From the UHGV virus genome UHGV-1695118: a DNA stretch of 18,953 bases; one strand, 5' to 3'. A program made the translations under genes and the position numbers. This stretch comes from a virus. The notes beneath the pieces are model-generated. The model saw only the letters and a program-made list of their open reading frames with translations. It had not been told where the DNA came from and ran no database searches. Below, piece by piece: positions 3,928 to 7,399 of this stretch; position 1 is the first letter of the stretch, and every line of letters starts with the position of its first letter.

Positions 3928-3943
3928 AATCAATGTGTTAGCT

Positions 3944-4222
3944 ATGAGTGATTATCTAAAACCGCCACCGCAACCACGAACAAAAGAGCAAGTATTAAAA
4001 GAAGCCCGCGATCGATTTGATCGCGGGCTTTTTTTATGCGGCACGGCAGCGGATCGAATGGCGAAAAGATTTAGTGACCTGTACGCGAAGCAAATCTGGT
4101 TTGACAACTGGCGAGCGAGTTCTTACCCGCTACAGAAAACTGATGATATGCAGTGGCCTGAATATGTTGATCCACGAATGCGCAAATATCGCGGGCGTAT
4201 GGGCAAGGTTATTAACGATTAA
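3944..4222 (+). CDS. Hypothetical protein (92 aa)
   Basis: In-frame ATG downstream of ssb within ORF-track frame 3812..4222; the upstream part of that frame overlaps ssb. No clear SD. Confidence 0.5.
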   Translation: MSDYLKPPPQPRTKEQVLKEARDRFDRGLFLCGTAADRMAKRFSDLYAKQIWFDNWRASSYPLQKTDDMQWPEYVDPRMRKYRGRMGKVIND

Positions 4223-4234
4223 TGAGGTATTACC

Positions 4235-4486
4235 ATGACAGCTACAACATTAAGCGAAAATAACGGGCGCGGTTTTCAGGGGACTGCGGAAACCTCAGAC
4301 GATGGTGATGTATTTGTCGAATTCGGTGGCGGTAACTATGAATTCGAAACGTCGGCGGGCTGGCACGATAAATGGCCTTTCCCGACGCGCAAGGAATTAA
4401 GCGATCGAAAAACATTTGGCGAAGATGCCGAACGCCTGGCGAATAATAAATGGATGGATAAATTTATTGCGGAGGCTGAAAAATGA
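4235..4486 (+). CDS. Hypothetical protein (83 aa)
   Basis: ORF-track ORF; GAGG 7 nt upstream of the ATG. Confidence 0.6.
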   Translation: MTATTLSENNGRGFQGTAETSDDGDVFVEFGGGNYEFETSAGWHDKWPFPTRKELSDRKTFGEDAERLANNKWMDKFIAEAEK

Positions 4487-4596
4487 GTTTTGCAAAAATT
4501 GCAGCATTGGCTGCGGCGGTGGCGATCGCGGCGCTATATCTTAGCTTATCGCTTTATATTACGGTGGCGATCATCAAGCTGATTACAACTATGTGA
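4483..4596 (+). CDS. Small hydrophobic peptide (37 aa, predicted single transmembrane helix)
   Basis: ATG overlaps the upstream stop (ATGA); GGAGG 7 nt upstream. Sequence MSFAKIAALAAAVAIAALYLSLSLYITVAIIKLITTM. Below the ORF-track cutoff. Confidence 0.5.
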   Translation: MSFAKIAALAAAVAIAALYLSLSLYITVAIIKLITTM

Positions 4597-4603
4597 GGCA
4601 ATC

Positions 4604-4726
4604 ATGAGAGTCAGTAAGGATATTGTGACGGTCGCGTTTTGCGTTATTTGTTTCCTGTTTGCGGTTGTGTTTTGTGGCGCACTTGCGGCAGTGATTAGCT
4701 TTATTGGTAAGGGGGTGATGTTATGA
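4604..4726 (+). CDS. Small hydrophobic peptide (40 aa, predicted transmembrane)
   Basis: ATG 4604 with GTGAGG upstream. Sequence MRVSKDIVTVAFCVICFLFAVVFCGALAAVISFIGKGVML. Stop overlaps the next start (ATGA). Confidence 0.5.
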   Translation: MRVSKDIVTVAFCVICFLFAVVFCGALAAVISFIGKGVML

Positions 4727-4995
4727 CTCTGTGGGATGCAAAAGAAGGTGATCTCGTTGTCTTGCCAGCATATCGTAGTGATCTCGGGCTGGTCGTACTG
4801 AATAAAACATGTAGCGACATTCAACGCCCGATCCTGGTTAGATACTTAGACGGCACGATGATCGAACCGCGTTTCTTCGACAAAGTTGAACTGAAGGCCC
4901 GCAATGTTCGCGTTAAGCCTTTCCGGGCTTATGTTGAAAATCACTGGCGTAAATTGTTCGCCGGACTGAATGGGATGTTCGGCGTATGGCTATAA
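4723..4995 (+). CDS. Hypothetical protein (90 aa)
   Basis: ORF-track ORF, translationally coupled to the upstream peptide gene. Confidence 0.55.
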   Translation: MTLWDAKEGDLVVLPAYRSDLGLVVLNKTCSDIQRPILVRYLDGTMIEPRFFDKVELKARNVRVKPFRAYVENHWRKLFAGLNGMFGVWL

Positions 4996-6230: not shown

Positions 6231-6449
6231 ATGGCCCGCGAATTAATGCTTTATTGTGTTGAGGGTGGCGTAGGTAGTAATGCCTATGTCGCCGGGAAAG
6301 GCTATCCAGCCGATGAAGTGCTTTCTAATATGCACTTCCGGGAAAATGAAAGCCGGGTGTCTGTGTGGAAACGGTGCATTGATGGTATTGAGGTTGTAAG
6401 TATCGAACGGTATTTAGGCACGTTTGATTACGGTGTTATTGAGGCTTAA
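6231..6449 (+). CDS. Hypothetical protein (72 aa)
   Basis: ATG 6231 within ORF-track frame 6174..6449; GGAGG 8 nt upstream. Confidence 0.55.
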   Translation: MARELMLYCVEGGVGSNAYVAGKGYPADEVLSNMHFRENESRVSVWKRCIDGIEVVSIERYLGTFDYGVIEA

Positions 6450-6451
6450 TT

Positions 6452-6544
6452 ATGGACGACACATTGTTTTATATGTGCTGTTGCTGGGGTTTTATTGCCT
6501 TATGTCTGTTTATCAGGTGGTTTATTGAATACCATATGAGGTGA
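6452..6544 (+). CDS. Possible 30-aa hydrophobic Cys-rich peptide
   Basis: ATG 6452 with GAGG 7 nt upstream. Sequence MDDTLFYMCCCWGFIALCLFIRWFIEYHMR. Very short, so weak. Confidence 0.3.
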   Translation: MDDTLFYMCCCWGFIALCLFIRWFIEYHMR

Positions 6545-6547
6545 GGC

Positions 6548-6742
6548 ATGGAACAGAAAACTGATTATAGAATACCTGATGGCCTAAAATTAGTTGGCAT
6601 TGGTTTCGGGTGTAGATTTGTATCTGACGCAAAAGGAGCGATTTATTTAATACGTCTTATTGATGGCGTTCAACATATAAGGAGATTAGGAATTTACATC
6701 AAAGCATTCAGAAGAGGTTATTTAAAAACTCATGAAATTTAA
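6548..6742 (+). CDS. Hypothetical protein (64 aa)
   Basis: ORF-track ORF; GAGGTGAGG directly upstream. Confidence 0.55.
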   Translation: MEQKTDYRIPDGLKLVGIGFGCRFVSDAKGAIYLIRLIDGVQHIRRLGIYIKAFRRGYLKTHEI

Positions 6743-6935
6743 ACATTACATGGAATGGAAAATTCCAGAAGCAGCAACAAAGGCAGCGCCAGGAAATGTT
6801 TCTGGCGTTTATTTTTATATGGATGGCAAATGGTATTTCGGCAGCAGGCCGGATCGCTACTATCAAGAAATATGCAAGCCTCACGTATGGGATATTAAAG
6901 AGCGCGTGAAAGGCGGGGTAATTGAGGACGTTTAA
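6732..6935 (+). CDS. Hypothetical protein (67 aa)
   Basis: ORF-track ORF overlapping the upstream gene end; SD distant. Confidence 0.45.
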   Translation: MKFKHYMEWKIPEAATKAAPGNVSGVYFYMDGKWYFGSRPDRYYQEICKPHVWDIKERVKGGVIEDV

Positions 6936-6936
6936 A

Positions 6937-7164
6937 ATGATGCGTGCAATTATTGACTTCATTATTGGATGGTTATTTTGTTCTTTTTTCGTATTCTCAT
7001 GTATAGCTACGGTTTTTATTGGAATTTTATGTGGTGTGTCGTTTGTTACATGGGAGCTACCAGAAATTCCATCACCTGATGATGCGCTTTATATATTAAG
7101 GGTTATTATTGCTGTTAGTGTATTTGTTGGGTTCTTTTTCGCTGATTCTACTGATGATTTATAA
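6937..7164 (+). CDS. Small membrane protein (75 aa, two predicted transmembrane helices)
   Basis: ATG 6937 within ORF-track frame 6922..7164 (which uses a TTG start). Hydrophobic stretches IIDFIIGWLFCSFFVFSCIATVFIGILCGV and ILRVIIAVSVFVGFFF. Confidence 0.55.
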   Translation: MMRAIIDFIIGWLFCSFFVFSCIATVFIGILCGVSFVTWELPEIPSPDDALYILRVIIAVSVFVGFFFADSTDDL

Positions 7165-7165
7165 A

Positions 7166-7399
7166 ATGGCTTTATTTAACCTGTCAGAGCCGCAATTTAA
7201 CGCCGTAAAGACTGCCGCCCGCGCCGCGCTTTCGGCCTGCAAAGCGGAAGTAGAAAAGAACGGATACAGCGATAAAGCTACACGGCTGATATTAGAGAAG
7301 CATTATCGCAAGGTCGCCCCACTAATCAGTATTGAGCGCTTTGTGTGGTTGGTGGGGTATTTAAACAACCGTTGGGGAACGGAACAGGATTATTTCTAA
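7166..7399 (+). CDS. Hypothetical protein (77 aa)
   Basis: ATG 7166, one nt after the upstream stop, within ORF-track frame 7109..7399. Confidence 0.5.
   Translation: MALFNLSEPQFNAVKTAARAALSACKAEVEKNGYSDKATRLILEKHYRKVAPLISIERFVWLVGYLNNRWGTEQDYF

Follow-up and report, generated by a model that had tools for sequence, protein, structure and literature searches.

Three very small open reading frames (ORFs), here called pepA, pepB and pepC, lie among the early genes of the virus genome UHGV-1695118, a stretch of 18,953 nucleotides (nt) that is referred to below as the window. Comparison with related loci indicates that all three are very probably real, translated genes, and hydropathy and structure prediction make it highly likely that their products are single helices inserted into the membrane. 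Taken as a whole, the explanation that we favour on balance is that these are genuine genes of an early operon, encoding membrane helices that would act through helix-helix contacts. The three ORFs, with positions in the window, are:

4483-4596, + strand: pepA, an ORF of 37 amino acids (aa), product MSFAKIAALAAAVAIAALYLSLSLYITVAIIKLITTM
4604-4726, + strand: pepB, a 40-aa ORF, product MRVSKDIVTVAFCVICFLFAVVFCGALAAVISFIGKGVML
6452-6544, + strand: pepC, a 30-aa ORF, product MDDTLFYMCCCWGFIALCLFIRWFIEYHMR

An earlier note on this DNA had described two adjacent ORFs of 37 and 40 aa at 4483-4726 as single-helix hydrophobic peptides with good Shine-Dalgarno (SD) sites and stop/start overlaps with their neighbours, and had named a third candidate of 30 aa at 6452-6544; this description held. 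All three ORFs are present on the + strand, each with an SD-like site 5-7 nt 5' of its ATG (GGAGG at 7 nt for pepA, GAGG at 5 nt for pepB and GAGG at 7 nt for pepC), and an ATGA is found at both outer ends of the pepA/pepB pair. At the left end the pepA start shares this ATGA with the stop of an 83-aa gene upstream, at the right end the pepB stop shares it with the start of a 90-aa gene downstream, and the spacer between pepA and pepB measures 7 nt. pepC is placed 2 nt past the stop of a 72-aa gene and 3 nt ahead of the next ATG. All three occupy gaps between genes that are otherwise empty.

The hydrophobic single-helix character is seen in the Kyte-Doolittle profiles of all three products and, for pepB, in an AlphaFold2 (AF2) model. 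The best 19-residue Kyte-Doolittle window scores 2.31 in pepA, 2.95 in pepB and 1.88 in pepC, and when the 172 ORFs of 25-60 aa found in the six frames of the window are ranked by hydrophobicity, pepB and pepA take the top two places and pepC the 11th. pepA carries a 26-residue apolar stretch between K5 and K32 that is Ala-rich in its N-terminal half, and a small-xxx-small, Ala-rich face is kept across all of its alleles. pepB begins with MRVSKD, and in its main allele group C13, C16, C24, G25, A26 and A29 are invariant; the allele typified by Escherichia phage MagusPhagus has neither C16 nor C24. The AF2 model of pepB, obtained from a 20-sequence alignment, is a single continuous helix over residues 3-38 with a mean predicted local distance difference test (pLDDT) score of 85.8. 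The pepC product is a single-pass peptide rich in Cys and Trp; its N-terminus (MDD) is acidic and its C-terminal tail is basic.

The evidence that these frames are genes comes from 47 related loci (7 phages, 5 Escherichia coli prophages and 35 IMG/VR contigs). The earlier note had pointed to the state of the frames in relatives as decisive, and there they are preserved. Of the 46 loci with the pepA region (L001-L045, L047 and L048), 45 have pepA open; in the exception, L018, a 1-nt deletion within a run of A shifts the frame. pepB is intact in every locus examined, and 20 of the 21 distinct nucleotide versions of pepC are intact, the remaining one (L025) having W23 replaced by a stop. The + strand frames of pepA, pepB and pepC are the sole frames open in all related loci. 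Insertions and deletions (indels) follow the codons: apart from the single deletion in L018, those in pepA are of a 6-nt class only, those in pepB are of 3 nt only, and indels of 1-2 nt are restricted to the spacer between the two.

Substitutions in the alignments of all three genes are codon-periodic and biased to the third position. The ratio of nonsynonymous to synonymous polymorphism (pN/pS; pooled Nei-Gojobori estimates with bootstrap 95% confidence intervals, CI) is 0.31 for pepA (95% CI 0.21-0.43), 0.42 for pepB (95% CI 0.29-0.58) and 0.15 for pepC (95% CI 0.07-0.30), the last being almost invariant. Accepted flanking genes give 0.27 (the 83-aa upstream gene), 0.24 and 0.14, and shifted frames of the same alignments give 0.8-2.4. 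Where alleles have diverged, length and hydrophobic character are retained. This is so for the MagusPhagus-type pair, in which pepA and pepB have 35 and 38 aa, for a 39-aa pepA allele in L016, L019 and L027 whose C-terminal half differs, and for the diverged, in-frame 29-aa pepC allele of L021.

The joints of mosaic exchange respect the same boundaries. In the STEC308 prophage (L047) a 714-nt KilA-N gene has been inserted exactly at the pepA/pepB boundary with both peptides left intact (pepA at 358-471, the KilA-N gene at 480-1193 and pepB at 1205-1324 of that locus); it begins at the usual pepB start position, and pepB, now located behind it, has a new SD. Many BLAST matches likewise terminate exactly at the pepC stop, which marks a mosaic junction. 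Mosaic joints in phages typically fall at gene boundaries.

Several observations concern pepC and its position. Its TGA stop is followed by GGC and then by the ATG of a 64-aa gene at 6548-6742 (positions 6542-6550 of the window for the junction), which places both genes in one frame, and a natural 96-aa fusion of pepC with this next gene (TGA changed to TGG; protein P0090) is found on 4 contigs in public assemblies. Programmed read-through at the pepC stop is unlikely, because some relatives have TAA there. Another hydrophobic ORF, of 33 aa (MWLIDLILACWLIVLVGFVGYFAWEEGKHNGRY), occurs in L014 and L021 at about 4400-4500, equivalent to just before position 6452 of the window; it adjoins the diverged pepC in L021 and replaces pepC in L014. 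It seems that small transmembrane (TM) ORFs can be exchanged as cargo where pepC stands. The window itself is mosaic between 4235-4995 and 6231-6742: the pepA/pepB block matches the prophage of E. coli FAH (L008) at 99.9% identity, and the pepC block is 100% identical to L013 and L019 and just 91.6% identical to L008.

Searches of protein families and collections place all homologues within one group of E. coli phages. Pfam and PHROG gave no match for the three peptides besides two noise-level PHROG hits for pepB (E 0.08-0.09), NCBIfam gave none, PADLOC gave none at E<=0.1 for the peptides and seven neighbouring genes, and a search of the PDB with a pepB profile returned only noise (E 3). A word-indexed search of 5.8 billion proteins, for which the pepA query was padded with GSG, recovered 46 clusters for pepB (37-40 aa) and 11 for pepA (36-37 aa). 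The named members of the pepA clusters are from E. coli only, and named members overall come from E. coli or from uncultured Caudoviricetes and carry the label hypothetical; one member elsewhere is called 'putative membrane protein'. When 1.84 billion representative proteins were searched exhaustively with a pepB profile, the yield was three small relatives from within the family and a spurious repetitive protein, and no distant relatives. The exact pepC sequence is present on 429 contigs. A tblastn search with pepA against phages gave no match, which we attribute to the low-complexity filter of BLAST, and a literature search for the peptide sequences found no paper. BLASTP of pepA against pepB yields no alignment, and paralogy of the two is therefore without support.

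The DNA of this region is 84-88% identical to that of Escherichia phages MagusPhagus, mEp010, mEp554, mEp044, mEp021, mEp515 and mEp013, and the window is that of a temperate coliphage or prophage of the mEp021 (mEpimmI) group. Orthologues of the peptides are present in all 7 sequenced phages and correspond in position, orientation and sequence. The direct orthologues, of the same position and length and with 59-98% aa identity, are mEp010_29, _30 and _37, mEp044_27, _28 and _34, and MagusPhagus CDS0113, CDS0112 and CDS0106; these are automatic calls (by PHANOTATE for the mEp phages) labelled hypothetical, and they are absent from the original mEp021 record and from the RefSeq annotation of the Prokaryotic Genome Annotation Pipeline (PGAP). 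pepA and pepB share 99.9% identity with the prophage of E. coli strain FAH. The region is carried by 35 of 5,426 complete E. coli genomes, 7 of which we opened, always in single copy and always on the chromosome.

The setting of the peptides differs in part from that first proposed. The earlier note had placed them in the early-left operon of a lambdoid phage. Their position among early genes is borne out by synteny with mEp021, yet the mEpimmI group has been published as one of Nus-dependent, non-lambdoid temperate coliphages (PMC11893012). In this group nutR1 lies upstream of gp17 and nutR2 downstream of gp32 (PMC11893012), and the operon is therefore a rightward early operon in the group's nomenclature. 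Its content (kil-like, erf, ssb, abc2 and accessory ORFans) resembles that of the PL operon of P22 or lambda. The surrounding features of the window are:

1280-1927: cI-like repressor
2051-2079, + strand: sigma-70 promoter-like site, TTGACT-17-TATATT with 10/12 matches, likely the early promoter of the operon
2334-2371, + strand: candidate nutR1 read from the sequence, with a boxA-like CGCTCATTAA at 2334-2343 and a boxB-like hairpin GCCGC-TGGAAGT-GCGGC at 2355-2371
2427-2717, + strand: Gp17 orthologue, an N-like antiterminator by synteny with mEp021_17
2748-2870, + strand: 40-aa ORF directly upstream of erf and overlapping its start, with a weak Kil-like match and a family of its own (PHROG 34942)
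4235-4486, + strand: 83-aa upstream gene (PHROG 28542), its stop overlapping the pepA start
4723-4995, + strand: 90-aa downstream gene (PHROG 28396), orthologue of mEp021_23, its start overlapping the pepB stop

The candidate nutR1, a candidate by sequence reading only, agrees in position with the published description (upstream of gp17; PMC11893012), and the Gp17 orthologue has R17, R19, R20, R21 and R24, the Arg motif described in the same work. After the 40-aa ORF at 2748-2870 the order of genes is Erf, SSB, Abc2 (PHROG 656), a series of ORFans with the three peptides among them, the region of an Ipe homologue, and Dam and C5 methyltransferases, and the operon genes share one orientation. 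A promoter scan of the + strand detected no further site between a weaker one at 2318 and the peptides, and the first notable + strand terminator-like site is at 6785, downstream of all three.

From this arrangement it is likely that the peptides are expressed from the early operon. Synteny and the literature suggest that they would be transcribed within a long early operon from the promoter-like site near 2051, and that the N-like antiterminator Gp17 would read through the operon that carries them. Since no promoter-like site belongs to the ORFs themselves, synthesis of the peptides is expected after infection or induction only, and not in the lysogen. Each ORF would be translated from its own SD, pepA being coupled to the preceding gene and pepB to the following one. 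Each product is predicted to consist of little more than a long hydrophobic helix flanked by one or two charges, and should therefore insert in the inner membrane as a single-pass microprotein.

What such helices would do is a more tentative matter. Within the inner membrane they may exert their effect by contacts between helices, pepA by its small-xxx-small face and pepB by G25xxxA29 (in the main allele group), and pepA and pepB, which always co-occur, may work as a pair; the target would be a membrane component of host or phage, and the peptides would serve dispensable accessory functions in host takeover. We regard this modulator mode of action as possible and put it somewhat short of an even chance. 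Dispensability is suggested by the knock-outs in L018 and L025 and by the alternative small TM ORFs at the pepC position. Comparable in size are the E. coli small regulators such as MgrB, AcrZ, MgtS and CydX, which are single-pass proteins of 30-50 aa that bind a larger membrane protein (PMC12648545). The peptides share with them the dimensions of a single-pass microprotein; unlike the peptides, these regulators are chromosomal, stress-regulated and stand-alone, and no homology was found. The 'Entero67K' microproteins of Enterobacteriaceae, which are encoded by conserved small ORFs in intergenic DNA, are unannotated in RefSeq, hydrophobic, TM-like and under purifying selection, and have no Pfam domains (PMC11188072). 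The peptides are likewise hydrophobic, unannotated in RefSeq, under purifying selection and free of Pfam domains, here in the setting of a defined phage early operon.

Although speculative, and in our judgement a long shot, pepA and pepB might be the subunits of an undescribed two-peptide membrane effector, a hetero-oligomeric helix bundle made in the first minutes of lytic growth. Such a bundle would, for example, transiently alter the membrane potential or block a host inner-membrane protein, shutting out competitors or disarming membrane-based defence. In this view pepC and the 33-aa peptide that relatives carry would be equivalent cargo, each able to stand in for the other.

A number of points weigh against reading the ORFs as genes whose products act in the membrane. 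All relatives in the comparison are close, with nt identities of about 76% or more, and they are not phylogenetically independent. The pN/pS values of pepA and pepB stand somewhat above those of neighbouring genes, and constraint on hydrophobic composition alone could explain part of their signal. Plain linkage may account for the way in which pepA and pepB alleles co-vary, and some allele shuffling is seen. Published mass spectrometry is confined to virions (PMC11893012). The RefSeq annotation by PGAP places nothing in the 236-nt pepA/pepB stretch in any of the RefSeq E. coli genomes opened. The GenBank record of mEp021 has no coding sequence (CDS) at pepA/pepB and a predicted terminator, TERM_2, inside pepA (MH706966 14882-14898, that is L001 3535-3551, within pepA codons 7-12 and equivalent to 4501-4514 of the window). 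A terminator t2 is reported to have been shown experimentally (PMC11893012) and may be the same site as TERM_2; the coding signal of pepA and pepB would stand even if t2 were TERM_2.

Among other accounts of what the products do, the one that fares best is that they are host-killing or division-blocking toxins, functionally like Kil or like the pore-forming type I toxins (Hok, TisB, Ldr), which would depolarise the inner membrane or halt division early in the lytic cycle. We consider this unlikely, for reasons that begin with Kil itself. Lambda Kil is a soluble FtsZ inhibitor and not a membrane peptide. Like the peptides, lambda Kil (PF06301) and P22 Kil are small products of an N-antiterminated early operon that also holds recombination genes; unlike them, pepA, pepB and pepC have no match to PF06301 or PHROG 2055 at E<=0.1, and the comparison with Kil that the earlier note had drawn is not supported. 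The only Kil-like signal in the window, a weak match, belongs to the other ORF, at 2748-2870, with E 2.4e-4 and 20.9 bits to Pfam Lambda_Kil (under the 27.6 cut-off) and E 0.0019 to PHROG 2055 'Kil protein'. This ORF is probably the 'Kil-like protein' mentioned in PMC11893012, where the gene is not named, supplements included.

The resemblance to type I toxins is one of size and architecture. The membrane toxins of type I toxin-antitoxin systems have fewer than 60 aa, one TM helix and very short ends, and are often found on prophages (PMC12648545). The peptides, like Hok/Gef, TisB, LdrD, IbsC, ShoB, DinQ and ZorO, are small and hydrophobic with one predicted TM helix. Unlike these toxins, which have a separately controlled mRNA, the peptide ORFs are coupled members of a long operon, their SDs are exposed, and no SD-sequestering leader was found. 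Pfam and NCBIfam gave no match to the known toxin families (Hok, Ldr, TisB, Ibs, ShoB), and Rfam gave no antitoxin or small RNA match at E<=1. On the - strand between 4200 and 5000 a consensus scan, which an atypical promoter would escape, found no promoter-like site, and only a 5-bp hairpin. In favour of the toxin reading, over-expression makes many early accessory genes of phages toxic. The same operon, moreover, encodes Ipe, whose over-expression leads to haemolysis and cell death according to the literature on mEp021.

Less probable again, and in our view doubtful, is a role in exclusion or defence, in which the peptides would be inner-membrane proteins that block the entry of superinfecting DNA or hinder membrane-based host defence. 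Small phage inner-membrane proteins with such a role exist, among them T4 Imm, which is made early, and HK97 gp15, both exclusion proteins of about 80 aa or more with at least two TM segments. The peptides are similarly small, phage-encoded and predicted to lie in the inner membrane, but they are smaller still, have one helix and show no similarity to these proteins. In relatives the place of pepC is taken by several different small TM ORFs, a pattern typical of arms-race cargo. Against this, expression in the lysogen is not expected where no promoter-like site belonging to the peptides was found, PADLOC shows no homology to any defence model, and the exclusion functions described for this group in the literature are Lpp-type lipoproteins encoded elsewhere.

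It is very improbable that the act of translation alone matters, with ribosomes on the mRNA maintaining translational coupling or avoiding Rho polarity and the peptide sequence being irrelevant. Tight packing and the stop/start overlaps would suit such a role, but the pN/pS values of 0.15-0.42 have confidence limits far under 1, the six invariant residues of the main pepB allele group and the near invariance of pepC speak for selection on the products, and diverged alleles keep their length and hydrophobic character.

Least probable of all, to the point of being negligible, is that 4483-4726 is non-coding, a regulatory spacer with a terminator (TERM_2) or another RNA element in which the ORFs are incidental: the mEp021 record and the GC-rich hairpins formed by Ala codons (GCN GCN) at 4501-4514 favour it, but the hairpin has no T-tract in the window, its shape varies between relatives, its fold-energy z of -0.3 to -2.0 is unremarkable, Rfam has no match in the pepA/pepB region, and third-position bias, in-frame indels and universally open frames are unexpected for an RNA element. 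A terminator scan likewise found no + strand terminator-like site in the pepA/pepB region. The predicted-terminator label in pepA is thereby corrected, as it is not conserved as a terminator in the window or in the relatives examined.

With regard to the neighbouring genes, the pepA/pepB block and its neighbours are ORFan cargo specific to this phage group. Homologues of the 83-aa upstream gene are restricted to the same seven phages. Orthologues of the 90-aa downstream gene carry the NCBI label 'toxin-antitoxin system toxin subunit' (for mEp021_23, 'putative toxin-antitoxin system subunit'). This gene has no match in Pfam, NCBIfam, PADLOC or the PDB, and no relative in a contig scan with one genome per species; its AF2 model has a pLDDT of 60.8, and Foldseek against the PDB gave a best E of 0.2, with generic small beta-barrel folds only. 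No library or fold match supports its naming as a toxin-antitoxin toxin, and the database label is corrected accordingly. An antisense ORF at 4546-4824 (92 aa) was rejected as a gene, its frames being interrupted in part of the relatives. The peptides also lack the setting of holins and other lysis proteins of the membrane, which is a late cassette beside an endolysin; their ORFs stand amid the erf, ssb, abc2 and methyltransferase genes of the early operon.

Elsewhere in the operon, an 80-aa ORF at 6922-7164 (PHROG 14059) has several hydrophobic segments and lies just before the Ipe-homologue region at 7109-7399 (PHROG 303), and small membrane proteins are numerous in the operon. At 3942-4037, inside abc2, Rfam gives a match to the Thr operon leader that, with 31.9 bits, stays under the gathering score of 55. 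It overlaps a 12-bp hairpin at 4002-4030 (- strand in the scan) and an ARNold terminator annotated in relatives (T4 in mEp010), and is probably a chance match to the hairpin.

The three peptides join the very large class of phage and prophage single-pass microproteins as new and uncharacterised additions, and as such they are an ordinary finding of modest interest that shows no new mechanism. Single-helix small proteins are nonetheless the least-annotated part of phage and bacterial genomes, and the comparative evidence assembled here is strong enough to annotate three more genes in a phage group reported to be common in the human gut. One small protein with a drastic host phenotype, Ipe, is already known from this operon, and at 111-123 nt each the peptide genes are concrete short targets for learning what the early membrane microproteins of phages do.

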